Shown here piece after piece: positions 14,546 to 46,860 of a DNA stretch of 64,000 nt. The stretch spans positions 49,290,001-49,354,000 of the forward strand of contig OZ024741.1 in assembly GCA_964016885.1 (NCBI GenBank), in the 5' to 3' direction. Below the pieces are notes generated by a model. It saw nothing but the letters and a program-made list of their open reading frames with translations, was not told the DNA's origin and made no database searches. A program made the position numbers and the translations under genes. Positions within the stretch are counted from its first letter, which is position 1. Every line of letters begins with the position of its first letter. Source of the DNA: Eledone cirrhosa. Its lineage: Eukaryota.

Positions 14546-14809
14546 TTCACTTCAGAGGCTCTCTAGATTCCAGAACCACTTCATGAGACTTATGACTAAA
14601 GACTCAGCGACCATATCTCTATCAATGAGCTACTCAATATTACCAAGCTTAAACCAATCACATCAGTCATCAAGTCAAGTGTACTTAAACTGTATGGTCA
14701 TATCAAAAGACGTATATTCCGGATGAAATACTAAACCCTACCATTTCTATATATTTCCAATTCCCCACCGCACCTGGTATTTAGTAAATATCATGCTCCC
14801 GCAACCTGT

Positions 14810-15318
14810 GCAGCCAGTTATTGGGGTGCCACTCTAGATGTGCCACTAGTGTAGCCAGTCGTTGGGGTGCCACTCTAGATGTGCCACTGGTGCAGCCAGT
14901 AGTTGTGGTGCCACTCTAGATGTGCCAATGGTGCAGCCAGTCGTTGGGGTGCCACTCTAGATGTGCCACTGGTGCAGCCAGTCGTTGGGGTGCCACTCTA
15001 GATGTGCCACTAGTGTAGCCAGACGTTGTGGTGCCACTCTAGATGTGCCACTGGTGCAGCCAGTAGTTGTGGTGCCACTCTAGATGTGCCAATGGTGCAG
15101 CCAGTCGTTGGGGTGCCACTCTAGATGTGCCACTGGTGTAGCCAGTCGTTGGGGTGCCACTCTAGATGTGCCACTGGTGCAGCCAGTTATTGGGGTGCCA
15201 CTCTAGATGTGCCACTAGTGTAGCCAGTCGTTGGGGTGTCACTCTAGATGTGCCACTAGTGCAGCTAGTCGTTGGGGTTCCACTCTAGATGTACTATTAG
15301 TGCAACTAGTCGTTGGAG
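14810..15318. repeat. 41-bp minisatellite, about 12.5 copies
   Basis: Unit gcagccagtcgttggggtgccactctagatgtgccactggt, with no spacers. Confidence 0.95.
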
Positions 15319-15486: not shown

Positions 15487-15567
<81 letters not shown>

Positions 15568-15969
15568 AACGAGTAGGACCCCGACGGCTGAGCTGAAGCC
15601 GTTTCGACGGCTAATTCTGGACTATATATATATATATATATATCGCTTTCCTCTAGCCATGGGACTTGGAGACCTGAGCCGAATACTACCATTCTATTAT
15701 ACATCGATGTGGGACTGCTATTTCTAATAACCATCTTTTCACTTCTTATTAATTTGTGTGTGAGACACGTTAGCTGGGAGCATCTGACGGGAACGAAAAG
15801 ATTTGTTTTCTATTCTCCCGCCACCACGTAAAGTTTGTAAATCGGTGGCTGGTCGAGGGACAGAATTGTATCGGATTCCAGTTACAAATCACTTTACTGT
15901 GTCGGCCGTCATAAACAGTCATAGCCGGCATGGGCTGGGGTTTGGATTCTGTGGATCGATTGGTTATTG

Positions 15970-16095
15970 AATAGGCGATACCCGCTGATGAAGCCGCATA
16001 CGCCGATTATGCATTTTGCATAATATATGCAGACGGAGGGTCCAGTGCACCCTACTGCTGCATTAAGTGTGGCTGAAATTCGAGTCCGGGAACTA
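15970..16095 (+). ncRNA. Type I hammerhead ribozyme, intact core, branched stem II
   Basis: aatag-gcgata-cccg CTGATGA (15985-15991) agccgca...tgtggct GAAA (16075-16078) ttcga GTC (16084-16086) cggg-aa-ctatt. All three stems pair. Confidence 0.85.
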
Positions 16096-16205
16096 TTATA
16101 GGCACCCGTTTTACTCGTGTTGTATTGAAGGGAATGTATCTTACATTGCCTATTGAGATACAACCGGCCCTGGCATTGATAAATATGCTGGGTCCGTCAA
16201 CTCCT

Positions 16206-16289
<84 letters not shown>

Positions 16290-16421
16290 GTAGAAGTTAT
16301 ATTTAAATTGTTGGGATACAACAAGCAAATATTTTTATAACTGATATAAAACACTCAACAAATTTTTGGAGTAAAAATACGATATATTAACAAATGGAAA
16401 CTATATTTATAAAACCATATT

Positions 16422-16486
16422 TATTTCGTTATACATATTTCAAGGACACCAAAGCAAATTATGGTGCGCTTTCATCAGATATAATA
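16422..16486 (-). ncRNA. Type I hammerhead ribozyme, mirror copy in the left arm
   Basis: Reverse complement of 16650-16714; tcatcag at 16472-16478. Confidence 0.65.
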
Positions 16487-16649
16487 TAATATAGATCAGT
16501 TTTATAAACAAATATTGACATACCCTTAAAGAATGCAACCATGTCGGTTGGAAGCTCCCGGATAGTCCAACTATCCGGGAGCTTCCAACCGACATGGTTG
16601 CATTCTTTAAGGGTATGTCAATATTTGTTTATAAAACTGATCTATATTA

Positions 16650-16716
16650 TATTATATCTGATGAAAGCGCACCATAATTTGCTTTGGTGTCCTTGAAATA
16701 TGTATAATGAAATAAA
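16650..16716 (+). ncRNA. Type I hammerhead ribozyme in the right arm
   Basis: tattatat CTGATGA (16658-16664) aag-cg-cacca..tggtg-tc-ctt GAAA (16695-16698) ta-tg-ta TA atgaaata. Triplet AUA; AATAAA at 16711-16716. Confidence 0.65.
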
Positions 16717-16756
16717 TATGGTTTTATAAATATAGTTTCCATTTGTTAATATATTG

Positions 16757-16804
<48 letters not shown>

Positions 16805-25100: not shown

Positions 25101-28033
25101 AGTTGCATTTATCTTGCTTTATGTTCATACGAGTTATCACCAAGTCACAACCAGTGACCTCAAGAGACAACAAGGTCCGCCATGTTCAAGAAAGAACATA
25201 CATACTCACACATGCATCTTTAGTGTTTAGACTTGTGATGTACTTATATTGACAGAATCTTCCTTAGTATATGGGCAGTTCCCATTAGTACTATCTTTTG
25301 TATTTCTCCTATACGCGGGTTTCCTGGGATTTGCGATAAGTAATCATTAGACCCCTTAGGTATCATTCCCAGAGCGCCTACAACCACTGGTATTGTTTTA
25401 GTTCTCAATTTCCACATTTTTCCAATTTCTATCTCCAGGTCCTTATACTTGCTCAATTTTTCAAATGTTTTTATAGATACATTCTTGTCTATTGGAACGG
25501 GCATATCAATTAGCGGGCATACCCTCTTTTTAAAGTCCTTCAATATTATATCAGGTCTATTTGCATCTATTTTTCGGTCTGTTTGGATACTAAAGTTCCA
25601 CAAGATTGAGATGTGATCTTTTTCAAGTATGGGAGGTGGTTGATGCTCCCACCAATTCTTTTGATGGGGCAGGTCAAAATGCTTACACATTATCCAATGT
25701 ATGTATTGTGCAGCTCTGTCATGCCTGTTTAGGTATTCGGTTGGAGCTATAGGACTGCACATTGAAATTATATGGTCAATGGTCTCTGGTTGTTTTTTGC
25801 ATACACGGCATAATGGGCTGCATCCATTTTTTATTATGTTGGCTTGGTAATTTTTTGTTGGCAGACACTGATATTGTGCTGATATAATCAGTCCTTCAGT
25901 CTCCGATTTCAGTCCAAAGGATGCCAACCACTGATGGGTTAAAGTTTTGTCAACATCAGGATTGTTAGCTCGTTCTGGGTACTTTCCATACAGAGGCTTT
26001 TCTTGCCATTTCTTAGCCAGTTTCTGTAGCAGTTCTTTCTTTGCAGTTACTTTTACCTGCTTTGCTTTTTCTGTGTTTTCCATTTCAGCAGTAAATGGGA
26101 CTTCTGAAATTTGTAGTCCAGTTCTTTGTGCATCTTTTGTAATGGAATATGATCTTTTGATGCTTTCGTGTTTCAAAACGAGTTTGATCATCCAATCATG
26201 TGATTCCCTTAGATATGTAGATAATCCAATTGTTGCAGTTTTCAACGCAATGTCTAACTGGATTAACCCACGTCCTCCTTCTTTCCTAGGGAGATATATT
26301 CTATCTGTATCTGCCTTAGGGTGATGCATTCTGTGCATGGTTAAGAATTTTCGAATTTTTGTATCGAGCCTACGGATCTCTGTGCTTGACCAGTTGATGA
26401 CATTGTAACTGTAGGCAAGCGTGATGACATTGTAACTGTATGGCAAGCGTGTTTATGGCATCGATCCTATTCCTTACATTCAATTCCGTTCTTAAGATTG
26501 CTCTTACTCTGCGGTAACATTCCTTCCTTATCCTTTCCCTCATTGTCGAGTGCTTGATTCCGTCTCCTTCACAAACAGCTAGATATTTGTAAGTTTTTTC
26601 TTGATCAAGTTCTCTTATCAAGTTCCCCCGATCAAGATTAATGTCTGAACTCTTCAGCAGCTTTCCTCTGGTGAACGTTGCTTTGGCGCATTTATCTAGT
26701 CCAAACTCCATTTTAATGTCATCACTGAACTGCTCCACAGTGGATAATAGCCCTTGCAATTGTTCATCATTTTTTACAAATAGTTTCAGGTCATCCATGT
26801 AGAACAAGTGATTAATGGTTTTGTCATAGACTTTATATCCATGTTTTGTTTCATTGAGCATTTTACTTAATGGTATAAGTGCGATGCAGAATAAAAGCGG
26901 TGATAAAGAGTCACCCTGAAAAATTCCACAATTAATATTAACTTCTCCAGCTTCCAGTGATTTTGTTTCACTATTCAAAAGAAGTGTCGTTTTCCATGTC
27001 TTCATACTGAATGACAAAAACCTCCTGACAACGGGGGATATTTTGAAAATCTCTAAACATTTTTCAATCCAACTGTGTGGCAAACTATCGAATGCTTTTT
27101 CATAATCTATCCAAGCAATCGATAGATTTTTGTGTCTATTATGACAATCTTCCAGTATCATTTTGTTAACCAAAGCTGATCCTTACACCCTTTCTGCTCA
27201 ATGGGAAATAGGTCATTTGTTATCAGGTGGTCATATGTGTATTCAGTTAGGACTGATGTTAACATTTTATACATTGTGGTCAAGCAAGTTATCGGTCTGT
27301 AATTTTTGGGATTGTTTGTCTCATCATTCTTCGGAAGCAGGAATGTAATGCCGTTAACTAGCCATGATGGTATCTTTTCTGGCTCCTTAACTATTTCATT
27401 GTAAAGTTGGGCTAACAGCTCATGAGACTCTGTGAAGGCATTTATCCAAAAATTTTGTATTTTGTCTTTTCCTGGGGATTTCCATTTGCTGGTTTTTCTT
27501 AGAGCCAAGCGCAACTGTTCAACTGTTATATTTTCCCATATTTGTTCTTCAAGGTGAGCTGTATCTTTCATTTGTCTGTCTATCCATGGGGCATGTATGT
27601 TATGAGCTTTTTCTTCGGCCCAGATCTTTTCCCAGAATTCTTGCACTTCCTCCTTGGGTGGTATTGATTTAGCAGTTATTGTTGACTTACCAATTTTTCT
27701 GTAGAAGTTTCTTTGGTTGTTTTTGAACATATTATTATCCTTATAGAATCTAGATCGTTTTTCAAAGCGCCTTATACGAGCAGCTTTGGCCGACACTTTT
27801 TGCTTGATTATTTCTATCAGCATGTCTATGTCACTTGTTGATTTTATACTGTACTTTCTTTTCAATTTTCTAAGTTTAGTTTGTTTAACATGTTCACCTA
27901 CTTTATAGTTTGTTAAAATTTCTATGTCAGATCGGAGAAGGTTTATTTGGCGATTGATGTTCTCTTGCCAAGTAGATTTCTTGTGGGAATTCCTTTGTTT
28001 TTTCATCTTCACTCCACATAAGTGAGTGGTGAC
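25099..28033 (-). mobile_element. R4/Dong-clade non-LTR retrotransposon (RT + CCHC + restriction-like endonuclease), 5'-truncated and frameshifted
   Basis: ORFs 27158-28012, 26370-27173 and 25244-26446: KSPGKD, NYRPITCL, IDYEKAFDS, GIFQGDSLSP, FYMDD, CRVC..ETIDHIISMC, RHD, NRPDI, EKLSKY. (TAA)n on both sides. Confidence 0.92.
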
Positions 28034-28089
<56 letters not shown>

Positions 28090-30900
28090 GGCGACCTACG
28101 TAGGAAATCGTATTATCGTGAGCCCCGCAAAGGTTTGTTGTTTTCAATTATTTTAAATTACCATTTATGGAAATTTTTTGTTGTTAAATGTTTATCAGGT
28201 CACATATATTGCTTTCGGAAAAGGACACTCAAAAAGATTGGGGCCTTGAGCCCAAAATTTAAACTTTTATAATTATCAAACAAAAAATTTCTTTGAAAAA
28301 AGTATGGACGACTCACAGCTACACCAAGCTGACAGCCTCCCTCACAAACTAACACCTCACACCAACACCACCATTGTAAATATTACTACTTTTGCCAACA
28401 CTAAAAATATAAGCAGTAGCAATATTTTAAATTTGTCTCAGGCAGACATTCATTTCCCGCCATTACCAATGACTGCAGGTGTTGAAGCCGCCACTCCCAC
28501 CACCACCACAGCGACAACAGAAACAAAAGAAAAGAATAAATTATCTAGTGATATCGAAACGAATTCAGCCAAAATGAACTCTTCCACACCGAACACCAGG
28601 TAAATCGCCTGGTTTGGATGGTCTGCCCTATGAACTTTACGTACAGATGCCAGACTTGTTTGGAGGCCTCTTGGCGGACGTCTACTGCAACTGGTAACAG
28701 AAAGGGAGAATTCCCAGCTCTGTGAGCCGAGGAGCTGTGGCGCTGCTGAGAAAGGATCCGTACAAGAGGGATAACATAGATAATTTCAGGCCCATAACTC
28801 TGCTAAACACAGAGTTCAAGATTTTGGCCAAGGTGCTAGCAAAGAGGTTGGCGCTTGTCATTGGTGGTCTGGTGGGAGATGCGCAGACATGGGCCATTCC
28901 CGACAGATCCATCCACGACAACCTCCACCTCATGCGATACATCGTAGAGAGGGTAGCTAGGGAACCTGGCACGGGTGGGTCGTTGATCAATTTAGATCAG
29001 TCGAAAGCTTTCGATAGGGTCGACCATCGTTACCTAGCAGCAGTCCTGAGGGCGGCTGGCTTTGGGCCCGTCTTCAGAGGCTGGATCGCTGCCATGCACA
29101 GCGACATCTGCTCTGTGGTGAGAGTGAACGGTCACCTTTCGGAACCGTTCAACATCATGCGCTCGGTCCGCCAAGGATGTCCCATCTCGTCCCTTTTGTA
29201 CGTATTGACTCTCGAGCCATTACTGCACAAACTGGAGACGTTGAGGGAGGTCCCGCGCGAACTAGGATGCGGAAGATCCGTGTCAGCATATGCGGACGAT
29301 GTCACCGTAGTGGTGTCGAACGCCAAACACATCGAGGCGATCAGCACTACACTAAGAGAATACGAAGCGGTGACAGGAGCAATGATCAACCAGGAAAAGT
29401 CAGTGGGCCTGCAGCTCGGCACCTGGAGAGGCAGGTCCATGCCGTCCAACAGCGTCGTCGGGCGCTGGACGGACGGACCGGTTAAATTGCTAGGGGTCTG
29501 GTTCGGTCCGGACCTCCAGACGGACAAAAACTGGGACGAGGTGACGAGCAGGGTGGCTTCTCTCACCCGGAAATGGGCGGAGAGGAAGCTGTCCCTGAAA
29601 GGTCGAGCGGAGGTGGCTAACGTGTACATCGCGTCCGTCATCTACTACCGCCTGACCGTCGTACCTTGTCCTAAGCCCCGCCTGACTGCGCTGGAGCGTT
29701 TGCTCTTTCGCTTTTTGTGGAAGGGACGCGCTCCGATGGTCAGGCGGTCCATCTTCTGTCAACACCCGCTACGTGGAGGGCTGGGCATGCCGTGGCTGAT
29801 GATGCGCAGACACGCGCTCAGGCTACGACATCTCCACCTCTTCCTCGACGGTGATCAGGTGTGGTCGCCGTTTGCTAGACACGTTTTTCCCCAGCTCGTC
29901 TCCTTGACGGAGCTGCAGTCCTGGGTCAAGCGAAGACCGAGAGGGAGCGCTTGGAGACTGGAATGTCTTCAGGCGCTCACAGCCCTCGACCAATCAGGCA
30001 ATGTGATCGGTGGAAACTCCACCTTGGCGTTCTATAGGGGATTAGTGGTGGGGAAGGGCGACGACGTACTTGGAGAAACTCTAGGCATCGACGAAAATCA
30101 ACTAGCCAATCTCTTCGGAAGGACTTTCGGGCCGGGGCCTATGGACAACTTCCAGAAATCCCTGGCCTGGCAGTGCTACCGAGGAGCTTTGCCAGTTCGG
30201 GATAAACTCTACAGGCATGGAGGTGCCGTCATCCGGGCATGTCCGAGATGCGCGCAGGGCGACGAAACCGTCCTGCACGCACTCGTCCAGTGTCCGAGCA
30301 TTGCTGACTTGTGGGTTTATGTCGAACACCTGCTGTCACGTGTAGGACGGATCCAGCTATCAGCTGAGTCCATCGTGAGGATTGCCCCGCCCCCTTCCTT
30401 TAGCCTGGAAGGGCAGGCAGTTTTTATCTGTCTGGTGGCCATGGCGAAAGAGATAGTATGGTGGACACGTTTGAAAAGGCTGAAGACGAGCACTTACCTC
30501 TTCGGCGATGCCCTGATTAACTTTTTCAAATTTCATTTGAAAAGGAAAATCAGGGTAGAGAGGGAAGTGCTCTCTTCCCAGCATTTTGTTGAAAGATGGG
30601 TGAGAGAAGCAAGTATGGCCCGAATGAATGGGCCTTCTCTGAGTATGTGTCTGTAAATTAAAGGTGGAAAACTGGGAGAGGGCACTTGCCCTGGTGGTCA
30701 GGGCCACTGTGGTCTTTTAATGGGCTTTCTCCACAAATGTCCCTCGGAAGTCTCCCCCCTATTGGGGAATTTTTCTTTGTTATTTTATTTCAACCTCTGT
30801 TTTTTTTACACGCAGAAATGCCCATTTGTACCGTCCTGTATTGTACTGTACTGTCCTTAATGTCTACTTTATGTAAACCCTTGTAGTTAATAAAGAAAAC
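28090..30900 (+). mobile_element. Tx1/L1-clade LINE with retained 5' end and a large internal deletion
   Basis: Putative 5'UTR and short ORF1-like start 28304-28603 joined directly to GKSPGLDGLPYE; 3' AATAAA then (ATT)n. Confidence 0.85.
28722..30656 (+). CDS. LINE ORF2 part: reverse transcriptase and C-terminal CCHC zinc-binding domain
   Basis: NFRPITLLN, LDQSKAFDRV, VRQGCP.S.LLY, AYADD, GGLG, CPRC...ET.LHALVQC. Upstream in-frame TAA at about 28695 and no endonuclease, so probably non-functional. Confidence 0.85.
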   Translation: MSRGAVALLRKDPYKRDNIDNFRPITLLNTEFKILAKVLAKRLALVIGGLVGDAQTWAIPDRSIHDNLHLMRYIVERVAREPGTGGSLINLDQSKAFDRVDHRYLAAVLRAAGFGPVFRGWIAAMHSDICSVVRVNGHLSEPFNIMRSVRQGCPISSLLYVLTLEPLLHKLETLREVPRELGCGRSVSAYADDVTVVVSNAKHIEAISTTLREYEAVTGAMINQEKSVGLQLGTWRGRSMPSNSVVGRWTDGPVKLLGVWFGPDLQTDKNWDEVTSRVASLTRKWAERKLSLKGRAEVANVYIASVIYYRLTVVPCPKPRLTALERLLFRFLWKGRAPMVRRSIFCQHPLRGGLGMPWLMMRRHALRLRHLHLFLDGDQVWSPFARHVFPQLVSLTELQSWVKRRPRGSAWRLECLQALTALDQSGNVIGGNSTLAFYRGLVVGKGDDVLGETLGIDENQLANLFGRTFGPGPMDNFQKSLAWQCYRGALPVRDKLYRHGGAVIRACPRCAQGDETVLHALVQCPSIADLWVYVEHLLSRVGRIQLSAESIVRIAPPPSFSLEGQAVFICLVAMAKEIVWWTRLKRLKTSTYLFGDALINFFKFHLKRKIRVEREVLSSQHFVERWVREASMARMNGPSLSMCL

Positions 30901-34933: not shown

Positions 34934-36774
34934 ATGGAGATGGAAAGACGAAATGAAAATATAAAAACAAATTCATATTCAAACAACACAAATGACACCA
35001 AACAGTTCAATGACAACAAAAATAACAACAACACCAATAATGATGATAAAAACAACAATGACAACAACAACAAAGAAAAAATAAAGACAACACCAATAAC
35101 ACCAGCATCAAAGACAACAACAACACCAACACCAACACCAAGGAAAATACGAATAATATAAACATCAGTGACAACAAGAATAACAACAACAATAACAACA
35201 ATAATGACAACACCACCAACACGGATAATTCCACAAAGAAACCAAAAATCTCCTTTGCACAGACAGTTCAAAAAAAGGAGTAACTGACATATCTCGACAT
35301 AACAAATGCCGAACAACTTTTAAAGGACGCTAGGAGATATGTTACTTTCGAAAAAAATGGTGCTTTCAGCATCAATTCTCCGGTAGAAATTCGCAAGGAA
35401 ACTGCTCTCAAAACGATAGTTTTTAGGACAGTATCCAATTCTACCCAAAAACCAGTCCAATTGTCACAGAAAGAAATTGAACTGGTTTTCAAAAATTCAA
35501 TGAATGATATTGCATTCATTCAAAGAAGCAAACTTTTTGGGAATATTTCGGTACTCATGAAGGATCAATTGACGGCCCAAAATTACTCTGTGTCGCCAAT
35601 TGTATCCAACCTGTATACCTTTTTCCCTACATACATGGGAAAAAGGACACAAAAGATTAAAATCACGAGTGTCACACCAAAGGTGAACATATGGTGGATA
35701 CTGTGCGGCTTCATCAATTTTGATGAAGACAGAATACTGTCAGAAGGAAAGTCCCCCAGAGATGTATTCAATGGGACTAGCATTGAAGTTCTAGTGCAAA
35801 TGAGCCCAGAGCGAATAGCTATGATCCCACAACGTGTACTCCTGGACGGACTCACCTACATAAACTTTTCGGTTGAGGGTAGGCGGCCTTCATGTTACCA
35901 TTGCTTTAGCAGGAGTCACCTGAGGGCTTCCTGTCCTAAATTAATGAGTCAAAAAAAGGCTCTTCTGCCGACACCCATCAAAACAACACAACCACCAACA
36001 CCAACACAACAACAACACCAACACACAAAAATAACCACAATAAACACAGTCCCACCCAACCCCACTCCACCTAAAACCACTGCAAAATCACATACAGACA
36101 CAACAGCTCCCCAAGACATACCCCTCCCCAATCACACAGACGATACAACAGATGAGGCTATCTCGCCATCACCCAGTGAAGACGAGGGAGAACCCCATCG
36201 CTCGAAAAGAAAGAAAAGACATCACAAAAGCAAAAAACCAGCAAACACTACCATAAACATACAACCACCAACACAAACAACAAAAACATCACAAACAAAA
36301 CCCCCACCTCCTGAAAACAAAATACCTACAACAAAACGAAAGCACACACAAGAACTACAGACAAAAACAAACACAACACAAGAAAATTACACTTACACTT
36401 ACATAAACACTGAAAACAAAACACTAATGGAGACCATCACGAACGACCCTTCGGTAAAAACCGAAGGGAAAACTTTCGCCCACTCTATTAAAAATAACAA
36501 AAAAATGAACCTAAAACTAATTAGGGTCCCTATACAAACTTATAGGTCCCTAAAAGAAACATTTGAGAAGGATGTGGGGAATTCCTGCGTGAAACCACTT
36601 AACCGCGTCCTTCTCAAATGTCTCCCCACCCCAGACACCCCCATCCCACCAGACCCCACCCCACCAAAAATCTCCGTCCCCACCTCGCCGGAAACCACCA
36701 CCCACCCAGACAACCCCTCCAACACCCCCATGGAAATCGTGCAGCCTGGTTCCCAGGAGACGAAGGGTGAGTGA
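34934..36774 (+). pseudogene. LINE ORF1 (gag-like) with CCHC zinc knuckle and P/T-rich tail
   Basis: VEGRRPSCYHCFSRSHLRASCP in ORF 35461-36774; N-terminal low-complexity part 34934-35161 is disrupted. Confidence 0.75.
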
Positions 36775-36807
36775 TCTCTTTGCCTCTTTTAACTTTTCAG
36801 CACCAAC

Positions 36808-39800
36808 ATGGCCAATATAAGAGTTGGATGTGTGAACGTACGCGGCCTGGGGATGCCCTGGAAATAGGGCAAACTCTTAAACGACCTCAGGTCGCACAGT
36901 ATGGATGTGGTAGCCATTTGCGAGTCCAGGATCCCCAGCGAGCGACAGCTGGCCCCCATCTTCGATGACTTTGAGATCTACGCATCTCTCTGTCAACCGG
37001 GAGGTGGGGGAGGAGTTGCCGTTTTGCTGCGGAAACACCTGAGCCTCGTAACACAGACGGTACATCTGGACTCGGAGGGGCGACTGGTGGTCCTAGACGT
37101 TGACGGTAGTGAAGGTGGAGCCTTCAGGCTGGTGGCCGCATATGCCCCATCCGGGACACCGCGGCCAGACTTTGGGAACGTTCCACTCCTTGCTTTTAGT
37201 GGGGGACTGGAATGGAATCCTAGATGCACGTTGGGACTATGTGGGAGCATGTCCCGATAAAGGGGGGGGGGGGGTGTAACAGCCTCAAGCAGTTAATCGA
37301 CCGATTTGACCTGGCCGATAGATATCGACTAGATTTTCCGACTGCGCCACTGTGGACGTGGACTAATCGTAGAGGAACATCTAGATCGTACCTAGATAGG
37401 GTTCTAGTTAGAAATAAGGATAGGGACATGTTAAGCTGTCCACAAATGTTCATGGTTGCCTATTCAGATCACAAACTAGTGACCTGCATGGCCAACCTTG
37501 ATAGAACCCATAGACAAGGACCCGGCTACTGGAAGCTGAACTTGTCGTTACCGACAAGCAAAGCCTACAGTAGACGGATTAGCACTTTAGTTAAACAGCA
37601 CTTGACAGGGGCCATTGTCAACAACAGATGGTGGTACTCTCTCAAGAGGTCAGTTAGATTAGACTCGTTAGTTTTTAGTAAAGAATTAGCGTTAGATAGA
37701 AATAGAACCGAGAAGGAACTGGTAGATAAAGTAGAAGAGGCAATTAGAAGTGGCAACGTAGCCAGCGTGCTAGCAACGAGAACGGCCTTGGACCAGTTCT
37801 TCGACGCAAAGCACGAGGGCTGCGTTGTCAGAAGCAAAATACGTGCTCTGGGAAACGAGGGAGCCAAAGCTGTTAGCTGGGCCCGAGTGACGGAGGCAAA
37901 AAGTGGCAACAAGTCCATGATTCGGTCTTTGAAGGACCAAAACGGACGCATGATACGTGAGCCGAAGCAGATGTGTGCGGCCTTTCAGCGGCACTTTGCT
38001 CAACTGTTCAGGTGGGGCGGCGCGCCGGGAGGGGCTATGGATTTCGGTCCATACCTCGACGGCCTACCGCGACTCTCGGACAGCGAGGCAAAGTTCTGCA
38101 AAAAGCCGATTTCAGCCGCTGAGATAGGGGACGCGCTGAGCCAATGCGGCAAACGCAAATCTCCAGGTCTCGACGGTCTACCCTACGAATTTTACGTAGC
38201 AATGCCAGACTTATTCTCCGGTCTCCTGGAAGCGGTCTACTGCAACTGGCAACAGAACGGGAGAATTCCCAGTTCTGTAACCGGGGAGGTAGCCACACTA
38301 ATCAGGAAGGACGAGAATAAGGGGGATGACATAGGCAACTTCCGGCCCATAACTCTGCTAAACACAGAGTTACAGATTTTGGCCAAGGTGTTGGCAAAGA
38401 GGCTGGCGCTTGTCGTCGAGAACTTGGTGGGAGAAGAGCAGACATGCGCAATCCCGACCAGGTCCATACACGACAACCTCCACCTCATGCGATACATCAT
38501 AGAGAGGGTAGGGTGTAAACCCGGCTTCGGTGGGGCCCTGATCAACTTGGATCAGTCTAAGGCTTTCGATAGGGTTGACCATCGTTACCTGGATGCGGTG
38601 CTCGAGGCGGCAGGCTTCGGACCCGTGTTCAGGGGCTGGATTGCTGCAATGCACAACAGCAACATCTGTTCAAGGGTCAAGGTGAACGGCTACCTCTCGG
38701 AGCCGTTCCATATTACGCGATCCATTCGACAGGGATGCCCTCTCTCCTCCCTTCTGTACGTACTGACTCTCGAGCCACTACTGCGGAAGTTGGAGCTATT
38801 GCAGGGCATCCCTCTGGAACCGGGACTGCGGAAAGCGGCCTCGGCCTACGCCGACGACGTGACAATAATGGTGTCGAGCGCCTCGCAAATCGAGGAAGTT
38901 GGCACCTTACTGAAGGAATACGAAAGTTTCACAGGAGCGATGCTGAACCGGGACAAGTCCATCGGTTTGCAACTCGGATCGTGGAGAGGCAGACCGATGC
39001 CTTCCGATGGCGTCGTCGGACGCTGGACGGAAGGACCGGTAAAGCTGCTCGGGGTCTGGTTTGGTCCGGACCTCCAGGTGGAGAAGAACTGGAACGAAGT
39101 GACGGCCAAGGTGTTTGCACTCACCCAGAAGTGGGCCGAGTGCAAACTATCCTTGAAAGGTCGAGCGGAGGTGGCGAACACTTTTATAGCGTCCGCCATC
39201 TACTACCGCTTGACCGTCGTGCCTTGTCCAGCCAAAACGCTCGCCAAAATGGAGCGCGCGCTCTTCCGATTCCTTTGGAAGAGGCGGGCTCCTTTGGTGA
39301 GAAGATCCATCTGCTGCCAACACCCTTCTAACGGAGGGCTGGGGATGCCGTGGTTGACGATGCGCAAACACGCGCTCAGGTTGCGGCATCTCTACGTATT
39401 CCTCACCGGACAACCGGTGTGGGCCCCGTTCGTGAGGCGAGCCTTCCCACGACTCGTCTCGCTGACGGAGCTGCAGTCCTGGGTCAAGCAAAGACCGAGG
39501 AAAATGGGCGACTGGCACATCGAATGTGCTCAGGCGCTCACAGCCCTCTGGCAGGCGGACCCGGCGATCAGTGGAGACTCCACTTCGTCATTCTATAGAG
39601 GGTTGGTCCGCAGCAAGTGCGACGACGCGCTCGGTGAAACTCTAGGCGTAGAGGAAGATGAACTGGCCAGTCTGTTTGGTAGGACCTTCCGCCCGGGACC
39701 GATGGACAACTTCCAAAAGTCCCTGGCCTGGCAGTGCTACCGAGGAGCTCTACCAGTTCGAGACAAGCTCTACAGACATGGGCGCCCGGGCAGGGACCCT

Positions 39801-40228
39801 GCAAAAAAGATCTGTCCGAGGTGCGTGCGAGACGAAGAAACCGTCGCGCACGCATTCATACACTGCCCGGGCGTCACTGACCTGTGGGGCTATGTAGAAT
39901 GACTATTGTCGCGGGTGGGACCAATCCAGTTGACCACCGAGTCCATTGTCATGATCAAACCACCACCCTCCTTCAAAAACGAAGGAGAGGCGGTTTTCCT
40001 TTGTGTGATAGCTATGGCGAAAGAGGTTGTATGGTGGACAAGGTTGAAAGGGCTGAGGTCAGACACCTTTCTCTCCGGCCAACAACTGATTCTTTTTTTC
40101 AAATACCACTTTGGAAGAAGAATCAGGATGGAGAGAGAGGTGCTGTACCTCAGCAAGTTTTATGAAAGGTGGGTGAAAGTGGCGAGATGGCCCGAGTGAA
40201 TGGGCCTTCTCTCTATATCAGCCTGTAG
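36808..40228 (+). pseudogene. LINE ORF2: APE endonuclease + RT + CCHC
   Basis: MANIRVGCVNVRGL, DVVAICESR, GGVAVL, YAP, SYLDRV, SDH, YWKLN, KSPGLDG, AYADD, CPRC..ETVAHAFIHC. In-frame stops near 36865 and 39900 and a frameshift near 37200. Confidence 0.92.
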
Positions 40229-43900: not shown

Positions 43901-45726
43901 TTATCTCTTTCTCTTAATTTCGAGTATATTTTTTGGACCGGCCACCTTCCTGGTGGCAAGGCTGTAAAAGAAAAGAAATTGTTATCCCTTGAATCGCAAG
44001 AATGTTTTGCAAATTTTGAAGGTGCCAGCTATCTCAGCCATTTGTAGACTATGAATTAGGGAGCTGCGCTCTTTGTCCGCAAATCCAAGTTCAGTCATAC
44101 TTTGGTCCAATTGGGTTGGTATATAACCCGTAGCTCCAATAATGATGGGTATGAAGCTAAAGGTGTATCTTGGATACTGGATTTGTAAACTCTTCATCAA
44201 TGGTCCGTAGATGTCCTCCTTCTCCTGTATTTTTCTGACAACGTTTACATCAAGTGGGCAGCTGATCTCCACAACAGAACACGTTTTCAATGTGTGGTTC
44301 CAAACAACAATATCAGGCCGGTTGTGCTTTAATTTGGTGGCAGTTTTTATTTTCAGGTTCCACCAGTATTCTTTAGTGCCATCTGTCTCAATATATTCTT
44401 CCTCGTTTGTTTTCCGAAGTGCGTTCCAGATGGTTCTAGCTATCCCTTTGTGTCTCATGGGGAGGTAGTAGCGAGATGACATTCTTTCGCAGCTGGCAAC
44501 AATGTGGCTTACATCCTCGATCTTTGTTTTAGATAGCCTACATTTATTGTCAGCTGATGGCTCTCCCCTTTTGTGCAGCAGATATTTGGTAGGGAGTTCT
44601 TGTTCCTGTATTGCATAGAGATATCCCTCAAGTTGTGATGTCATAAACTTGTCGGAACTCAATGCCAGGCTTTTTGAGTGGTTTATCCCCTCTATGGTCT
44701 GTGTTTTACGTCTCAAGTATCTATGCACAACTTTTTCTGTAAATTGGTCAATTTTTTCATCTTGTTTGAACATTGAATAGGATCTTCCGATTTCTCTGGG
44801 TGAGAGATTTATATCAGGCTTTATTCCATATCTCTCCTCCAGTTCAGTGGCTATTCTAATGATATTTTTTTTTCATGCTCATAAACCTGGGCAAGATGGT
44901 TGCCAACCTTTTTCCTCTGTTGAAGATGTTGCTTCAGTGTTACTATCCGGGTCTCATATGATGTTAATATGGATTTTAGACCCCGGCCACCTTCCTTGCG
45001 TGAGAAGTATAGCCTATCCACATCACCATTGATGTTAAAGTTCCCAATAACACTGAGAAGTTTGCGAGTTCTAACATCCATCTCACTTAGTTCTTGCAAT
45101 GACCAGTTCAGCAGGCCAAATGTTGGCGTTAGAATTGGCACAGCATAAGTATTGTGGGCAATGTATTTGTTGTACGCTGACAGTTCTGATGACCATATTT
45201 TCTTTACTCTTCTGAGGTATTCAGTTCTGGTTCTTTCCTTATTTATGGGTCCATCATATCTGACATTCTCATCCTGTCCAAGATATCTGTAGTTGTCACC
45301 TGACTGTAGATGTTGTATTGTCAGGCCGTTCATCTCTAGATTTCTAGAGGAGGGCACAGCTCTTCCACGTTTTACTGCCAAATATGCACACTTGGACTCA
45401 CCAAATTTCATTTTGATGTCTGTTGAAAATTGTGTAATGAGGTCCAATTGTTTCTTGATGTCATTGATATTTGGCCCATACAACTTCAGGTCATCAACAA
45501 AGAAAAGATGGGAGATACTTCTGGACCCACTTCTTTGTCCACCTTGTTTCCTGAGTAGGTAAGATAGTGGATTTAGTGAGAGAACGAAGAGTAGCACTGA
45601 CAAGCTATCATCCTGAAAGATGTCCTTCTGGTAATGTATCTTATCAGTCTTAACTTGCTCCTTCTCACCTCTAAGGATCAAATTGGTGTACCAGTTCTTG
45701 GTCAGACGTTCAACAGCAGCTACCAG
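43901..45726 (-). mobile_element. Second R4-clade RLE non-LTR retrotransposon, 5'-truncated
   Basis: IFQ.DSLS.LLF, HLFFVDDLKLY, YRYLG, RKEGGRGL, AIQEQELPT, CRL...EDVSHIVASC, RH, NRPDIV, VEISCP. (CATA)n-type sequence at both junctions. Confidence 0.88.
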
Positions 45727-45808
45727 TGTATGTATGCATGTATGCATGTATGTATGTATGTATGTATGTATGTATGTATGTATGTATGTATGTATGTATG
45801 TATGTATG

Positions 45809-46860
45809 GTGCTACTGGTAACATGTATCCCAGTACAACCTGTCTCATGGTCGGGTCGTTGGCGACTAAACTGGCAACCCCACCAATGTTTCTTGGTGAG
45901 GAGGGTGACTCTGGACATCCTGCAGGACTAAAAACAAAACCTGTCAAAGGACAAAGGAGCTCTTGAGAGTCAATGGCCATCCAAAATCACCGGGAGAGAT
46001 GACTCCTTAGCCTTTGTCAAGGCAGAATTCTAGGAGAAGGAAAACTCTGATATAACACCTGCAACCCTGATGGTATCCAATGATGTTGACTTGTTCTTCT
46101 TTTTGGTAAATATCATCTTGGTTAAGAGAGTGGGACTGGCTTTGTGCAGTGCCTTTGCTCACTATAAAAGCTTCACGGCACAGGCATTGCTTTATATCTG
46201 GAGATCTCTCTGCACTTGTCGTCACATGGTTCCATGTGTCAATAATTGTCACAGGTGTAGTGTTTGTACCAGAGTTTTCAAGGACTAAAAAGTCACACTT
46301 GTTTAGCGCATCGGTAGGGGTTCTCCTACATGAATATAAAGTAGTGGCCGTACTCGAAAACGAGTTGGCAGCCACCATGTATGTATGTATGTATGTATGT
46401 CAGGTCGCTCTCGAGTGCTACTGATAACATGTAACCCAGTACAACCTGTCTCATGGTTGGCGTCTAAACCGGCAACCCCACCAAACTTGCTTGGTGAGGG
46501 TGGTAATGTTTGGACACCCTGCGGGATGAAATACAAGTCCCGGCAAAGGGCGGAGGAACTCAGCAGAGTCAACGGCCATCCAAATAGTATTTTTTTTTCC
46601 ACCTGGGAGTAAAAGGTCCCGGTTGTCACAACACCTTTCTAGGAGATGGAAACTCTGAAAAAAAAACCCTGCGGGTTCGGAAGCATCCGATGATGTTGAC
46701 CAGTTCTCCTTTTCGGGTAGTGTTTTCGATTCTCAGAGAGTGGGATTGGTCGAGTGCAAGGCCTTTCCCTACTTAAAAACCTTCAAAGCACAGGCATTGC
46801 TTGTTAAGGATCTGTTACAAGTGATTGCAATACTCTTAGCAGAGTTTGCAGTCATCACAT
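45809..46860 (+). mobile_element. Two diverged copies of a non-coding element resembling RTE/BovB 5'UTRs
   Basis: 45809-46376 and 46401-46860 share gtgctactg.taacatgta.cccagtacaacctgtctcatgg, ggcaaccccaccaa..ttggtgagg and ttctaggaga.ggaaa(a)ctctga. Each is preceded by (ATGT)n. Confidence 0.55.

Follow-up and report, generated by a model that had tools for sequence, protein, structure and literature searches.

The hammerheads of animal Penelope-like elements (PLEs) have been described as slow, as minimal (PMC4209133), and as lacking tertiary contacts (PMC6155905), and their cleavage is predicted to be of the dimer type (PMC4209133; PMC6765202). Pseudoknots have been noted for all three hammerhead types (PMC3088659). 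Hammerhead variants with additional helices have also been reported (PMC13725137), as have 'half cores' located 35–50 nt apart that fit no descriptor (PMC8557442). Retrozymes, dimer-type PLE hammerheads, and pseudoknots between stems I and II are each already known.

The hammerhead analysed here is located on the plus strand of the window, i.e., the whole stretch of 64,000 nucleotides of Eledone cirrhosa DNA under study, with its core at positions 15985–16086. The catalytic box CUGAUGA (15985–15991, with 0/7 changes among the subfamilies described below) is separated by 83 nt from the GAAA box (16075–16078). Stem I is formed by CCCG (15981–15984) and CGGG (16087–16090), and stem II by residues 15992–15999, comprising position 10.1 and the 5′ arm, paired with residues 16067–16074, comprising the 3′ arm and position 11.1. 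Between these arms, hairpin A (16006–16024) and the variable hairpin B (16027–16063) belong to a predicted three-way junction. The segment that starts with the GAAA box (16075–16086) also includes the palindromic stem III (16078–16085) and ends with the cut base C16086, cleavage being predicted between 16086 and 16087. Outside the core, a weak hairpin is predicted upstream (15954–15972), in a flank that shows 0/24 subfamily changes, GGCG (15974–15977) and CGCC of the junction strand (16001–16004) represent the 5′ and 3′ strands of a predicted pseudoknot, and a downstream hairpin (16087–16108) is predicted to capture the 3′ strand of stem I with residues 16105–16108.

All of the elements named in the first-pass annotation, namely the core, the stems, and a stem II opening into two hairpins, are present, and the fold of 15960–16100 recovers stem II together with both hairpins (z −2.29, equalled in 3 of 200 shuffles); the minimum-energy fold of this interval does not include stem I. 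The CUGANGA, GAAA, and UH boxes surround three stems, with stem I open, as in type I hammerheads, and the atypical architecture that had been claimed is borne out. Judged by its sequence, the motif is a genuine hammerhead with predicted self-cleavage. A pattern comprising the core, the ends of stem II, and stem III has 218 matches in the TA-rich, 3.0-Gb host genome and none when reversed, and thus the motif is not due to chance; the conservation among genomic copies that the first-pass annotation had proposed to check is also supported. Other searches yielded 2,294 and 3,037 candidates, with the best 40 of the 2,294 being 92–100% identical, a pattern with a 12-nt palindrome gave three matches and its control one, and a metagenome scan gave none. 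The expected failure of standard descriptors was confirmed for Rfam, which returned no matches in the window and, at a looser threshold, 27 weak ones, none of them a hammerhead; its attribution to the insert did not hold, since Rfam also misses the short-stem-II hammerheads of this genome (locus L257).

The closing A-U pair assigned earlier to positions 10.1/11.1 proved to be a minority variant. The family consensus is an A.C mismatch, 86 of the 102 aligned rows having C at residue 16074 and 10 having T, and the 34 full cores comprise 22 with A.C, 9 with A.A, and 3 with A-U, so that a Watson-Crick pair is not the rule. By analogy, such a non-Watson-Crick arrangement lowers the expectation of activity but does not exclude the predicted activity, because the axolotl hammerhead with U.U in this position shows measured cleavage (PMC7229834). 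Mismatches in these positions (U.U, A.A, A.C, C.A) are common in the hammerheads of this genome, as seen at six of the loci. The proposed extension of stem I by aatag/ctatt is not supported, with all five pairs found in 5/102 rows and A15971 in 4/102, and C16042 is private to the window copy (1 of 102 aligned copies). In stem III, residue 16079 is C in 87/102 rows, resulting in the family palindrome ACUCGAGU, and AUUCGAGU (16078–16085), found in the window, is a minority variant.

The claim that a short stem III favours a dimer is supported by the predicted energies, which amount to +2.9 kcal/mol for the monomer hairpin, compared to −10.7 kcal/mol for the self-duplex of the family copy and −6.1 kcal/mol for that of the window copy. 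Because the monomer form of stem III is predicted to be unstable and the self-duplex stable, two cores would likely have to come together in a dimer for cleavage to occur. The downstream hairpin that captures the strand of stem I is predicted in all seven subfamilies, with a probability of 0.32–1.0, and in subfamily E the predicted probability of stem I decreases from 0.76 to 0.02 once residues 16093–16112 are included. Stem I is thus not favoured at the predicted equilibrium when the downstream strand is present, and its capture would limit cleavage to the period in which the RNA is being transcribed.

The motif is carried by a mobile element that the first-pass annotation had not recognised, namely a 5′-truncated copy (15645–16208, plus strand) of a non-coding tandem unit of 840–890 nt (about 840 nt in young and 890 nt in old copies). 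The copy begins near unit position 246, departs at 3.7% of its positions from the majority sequence of subfamily E, has neither the head-to-tail junction nor the predicted intron, and contains two small deletions in its 3′ tail. It is flanked by a TA run at the 5′ junction (15623–15644) and, beyond the fixed 3′ end, by (TA)39 (16209–16286). Among 133 distinct loci, chosen by similarity rather than at random and covering only part of the roughly 3,000 candidates, 124 reach the fixed 3′ end and 109 of these continue into TA; TA-like letters are present at the 5′ end in 83 loci, and a head-to-tail junction, in which the 3′ end of the unit is joined directly to its own 5′ end, in 32. Copies extend to about 1.5 units, two strict cores are present in only one of the 133 loci, no full array of the window family was seen among them, and many tandem copies continue through the predicted cut site. 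The fixed 3′ end, 5′ truncation, partial tandems, and microsatellite target are features of PLE-type insertion, with an anatomy matching that presented in PMC8557442. Of 37 copies of the 5′ part of the unit, 33 carry the donor GTAAGT and 27 a site resembling an acceptor, suggestive of an intron, and introns are present in some PLE repeats (PMC6765202). Copies in which most of the stem II insert is deleted were found at six loci, each with a different breakpoint, and none was seen as an amplified subfamily. The family and its head-to-tail joints are also present in three sequencing runs from a single sample, whose type is not stated and which are uninformative on expression. A pile-up of 5′ ends at the predicted cut looked promising in tandem copies (3/32 within 2 nt); an unbiased sample gave no clear enrichment, with 4/100 ends within 3 nt, compared to about 1.6 expected (p 0.08).

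No long ORF is shared across four copies, no tRNA was found in four loci, and no protein likeness to nine ORFs of GIY-YIG elements was detected (best E 0.052); the unit does not include the RT plus GIY-YIG ORF of an autonomous PLE. As in non-LTR retrozymes, the unit is non-coding, is arranged head to tail, and has a single hammerhead motif of type I. On the basis of its sequence, and because of the fixed 3′ end, the TA-repeat sites, and the partial head-to-tail tandems, the repeat is very probably a non-autonomous PLE (non-LTR retrozyme). The window copy itself, with one core and the weaker palindrome, has probably lost the ability to move. RT plus GIY-YIG elements are abundant in the genome, with 10,597 GIY-YIG candidates; no autonomous partner sharing sequence with the unit was found in 40 of these candidate loci, or by protein comparison. 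A long-stem hammerhead behind an ORF at locus L134 was considered as a link to a partner and rejected, as it belongs to a separate TA-flanked insert. In turn, an RT plus GIY-YIG family (loci L133, L134, L138–L140, L144) has, as judged by eye, a short hammerhead-like motif in its 3′ region, with a core of the U3-A8 variant known from PMC4209133.

Other repeats are located nearby. A 41-bp tandem repeat (12.4 copies, 91% match) occupies 14808–15316, and a short TA-flanked fragment of another repeat, also present at four other loci, is found at 15567–15623. In region 16377–16759, two copies of a second TA-flanked element that carries a hammerhead lie in inverted orientation, with cores at 16478 (minus strand) and 16658 (plus strand), a 30-nt stem II, and the palindrome AUAUGUAU; 27 rows among the loci belong to that family. 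The long ORFs at 25244–28033, 28698–30656, 35284–39902, and 43982–45927 resemble, by eye, proteins of non-LTR retrotransposons.

The tree of the 102 aligned copies, 94 of which could be assigned, is a ladder of subfamilies from A (oldest) to G (youngest); as many copies were retrieved through the ribozyme, families with altered cores could be hidden. Between A and G, the ribozyme frame including hairpin A changed at 7/101 positions and the 5′ body at 109/310 (p 4e-9). Hairpin A shows 0/20 changes (p ≤0.003) and is likely structural. Hairpin B exhibits no clear constraint (11/38 changes, p 0.48 compared to the body), with changes on both sides at 16036/16055 and in the upper stem, and its stability in subfamily A is not significant against a random-change null (142/400); it is likely a tolerated passenger subject to near-neutral drift. 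The cut base follows the order A > U > C across subfamilies, with G in 1/102 rows. Stem II pair 15996/16070 (AU 22, GU 4, GC 4) proceeds along the ladder from A-U through G.U to G-C, but overall covariation within the family is weak: in a pair test on 30 copies, 91% of cells are paired and both sides change in 5 of 41 pairs, with 19 to 379 of 500 shuffles scoring as high.

The CGCC that follows the 5′ arm of stem II complements GGCG, located just 5′ of stem I. The idea of such flank/junction pairing was formed before other families had been seen, and the descriptor that found those families was blind to it. When applied to 60 evenly spaced 10-kb stretches (600 kb), this descriptor returned 37 rows, equivalent to 36 sites, and two controls returned none; stem II is 44–92 nt long in 9 of the 36 sites. 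The 108 distinct long-stem hits fall into 10 families; the median pairing reaches at least 4 bases in five of the nine other families, compared to 10 of 90 cross-family pairs (11%) reaching 4 bases (permutation p 0.001, window family excluded). The paired letters vary by family, with UGGGC:GCCCA, GAGCG:CGCUC, GAGCU:AGCUC, GAGUUU:AAACUC, GAGG:CCUC, GAGAAU:AUUCUC, and GGAAAA:UUUUCC seen in hand-picked copies, and in 15 such copies both strands lie 4–9 nt from the core, a spacing compatible with a parallel arrangement of stems I and II. In three families, the 3′ junction strand is complementary to the flank as well. No flank/junction pairing was found in four other families, at least one of which may be a false hit, some long-stem-II families may share ancestry and are thus not fully independent, and the spacings of the pseudoknot on its two arms are not correlated (rho 0.12). 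The pairing is weakest in the window family, with its 4 bp attained in 23 of 57 hits (median 3); no compensatory change was found between its subfamilies, and subfamily G loses one pair. The pseudoknot is probably real in the long-stem-II class, and has a little better than an even chance of being so in the window family. The earlier suggestion that the insert is a docking module is retained for a part of it, with docking predicted for the junction strand 16001–16004 and not for a hairpin loop.

The same two-hairpin topology is found in an unrelated family (loci L183–L212, L218, L294) with a 95-nt stem II, 2,271 candidates, and a period of roughly 750 nt; its best copies are 96–99% alike, and its diverged copies keep the pairing, with stem II and hairpin A covarying. 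A young tandem family (L313–L332), with 3,363 exact matches spaced by 554–571 nt, has a predicted pseudoknot of 5–7 bp, the junction strand being kept in 20/21 distinct copies while stem II covaries. A covariance model of the window family matched only its own members in 713 kb (two matches), and blastn detected no kinship with two other long-stem families, so that the shared topology is not evidence of shared descent. A further tandem array at locus L213 (G000:C4:42646000-42655900) has a period of about 655 nt and a hammerhead with a 49-nt stem II, giving 12 anchor matches in 9.9 kb, and many of the 36 hammerhead-like sites of the 600-kb sample (L220–L279) are found in 310- and 467-nt tandems with a 14-nt stem II.

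The reading that we prefer, with a probability of about 0.68, is that the window contains a 5′-truncated copy of a non-autonomous PLE with a type I hammerhead motif, a stem II predicted to form a three-way junction, and a predicted 4-bp pseudoknot with the flank of stem I, which would be cleaved mainly as a dimer. In a more-than-unit transcript, two ACUCGAGU palindromes would pair into a shared stem III, and the pseudoknot would hold stems I and II parallel, resulting in a higher rate. Cleavage would take place while the RNA is being made, at a point when the strand of stem I has not yet been captured by the downstream hairpin, and an autonomous Penelope-like element would provide the RT/GIY-YIG protein that copies the unit-length or circular RNA into TA repeats in trans.

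The same element could also be read in the opposite sense, with the pseudoknot and the long stem II damping cleavage, so that the monomer or circle is kept intact and cutting occurs only in multimers. There is a precedent in the hammerhead of the luteovirus satellite sCYDV-RPV (+), in which a long helix II is broken by internal loops (PMC1636495) and a peripheral interaction lowers the rate (PMC3152364), and both the competing downstream hairpin, predicted with a probability of 0.32–1.0 in all seven subfamilies, and the tandem copies reading through the predicted cut site would agree with damping. However, the strands engaged in the predicted contact are those of the activating pseudoknot of type II hammerheads, where it accelerates cleavage by about 20-fold to more than 100-fold (PMC3088659), and the position of both strands 4–9 nt from the core in the hand-picked copies would suit parallel stems I and II; by this analogy, the contact is fairly likely to be activating, and damping is unlikely. 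Quite unlikely, too, is a hammerhead that acts like the minimal ones of PLEs, using a stem II of 7 bp, in which case the insert would be a fold-back passenger of neutral effect and the GGCG:CGCC match due to chance. Hairpin B changing at the body rate, the 4-bp match in 11% of cross-family pairs, weak within-family covariation, and single copies with insert deletions are what such a passenger would produce, but it would account neither for the unchanged hairpin A of the oldest and youngest subfamilies (0/20, p ≤0.003) nor for the significance of the pairing across families, and short-stem-II versions number 2 against 218, counts obtained with differing search patterns.

It is highly improbable that the unit is merely the terminal repeat of an unsampled autonomous Penelope-like element, even if partial tandems, an intron-like signal at the 5′ end, and TA targets are typical of autonomous PLEs (PMC8557442). 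The 30 loci found by the 5′ end of the unit either continue into the unit or break off, the nine breakpoints that were read are apparently unrelated to one another, and the junction joins the 3′ end of the unit straight to its own 5′ end.

We can speculate further that the long-stem-II families constitute an undescribed animal class of type I hammerheads with a dimer stem III, an expandable stem II of 47–95 nt with one or two hairpins, docking by a pseudoknot, thousands of copies in unrelated families, and transcription-timed cleavage. This proposal is tentative and rather doubtful, as is, jointly with it, the view that its pseudoknot would be the form known from bacterial type II ribozymes and its families retrozymes of one genome. 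The combination was not found in a literature search, including the available text of PMC10085705, PMC3185516, PMC6155905, and PMC13725137, and motifs of this kind may be present in the supplements of PMC3088659 and PMC8557442. If true, a form that has a large stem II and docks by a pseudoknot would explain how some animal PLE hammerheads could be fast. Since 9 of the 36 sampled sites have a stem II of at least 44 nt, and in view of the half cores mentioned above (PMC8557442), searches with short loop II limits may undercount hammerheads.

Comparison with the sCYDV-RPV (+) satellite RNA, a double hammerhead, reveals a long helix II with internal loops in both cases, as well as a peripheral interaction of stems I and II, which is predicted for the window family. 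The contact in the satellite RNA is a pseudoknot. The satellite, however, is that of a plant virus, with an unbranched helix II, unlike the predicted branched stem II of the window family, and an interaction reported to lower the rate. In type II pseudoknot hammerheads (Perreault et al. 2011, PMC3088659), as predicted here, the side of stem I is paired with the bases that directly follow the 5′ arm of stem II; the window family differs from them by its type I topology, a stem II closed by one or two hairpins, a dimer-palindrome stem III, and an animal retroelement as the host.

Minimal PLE hammerheads (Cervera and de la Pena 2014, PMC4209133) are similarly of type I, with a stem I of 4–5 bp, a stem II of about 7 bp, a palindromic stem III, and predicted dimer action. 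Unlike them, the window family has a stem II predicted to form a three-way junction, A.C in place of the conserved G-C at 10.1/11.1, and a predicted contact of the tertiary kind said to be absent from minimal forms (PMC6155905). The animal non-LTR retrozymes compared here (Cervera and de la Pena 2020, PMC7229834; Li, Clavereau and Pollet 2026, 10.64898/2026.07.22.740005) share with the window family a non-coding head-to-tail unit, one type I hammerhead, the lack of an LTR, and the presence of autonomous PLEs in the genome, and the length of its unit falls within their 51–972-bp range (10.64898/2026.07.22.740005). In contrast to retrozymes, the copies seen are dispersed, 5′-truncated, and up to about 1.5 units long instead of forming long arrays; its unit is longer than the 170–400-nt circles of invertebrate retrozymes, and its stem II carries an insert of 84 nt.
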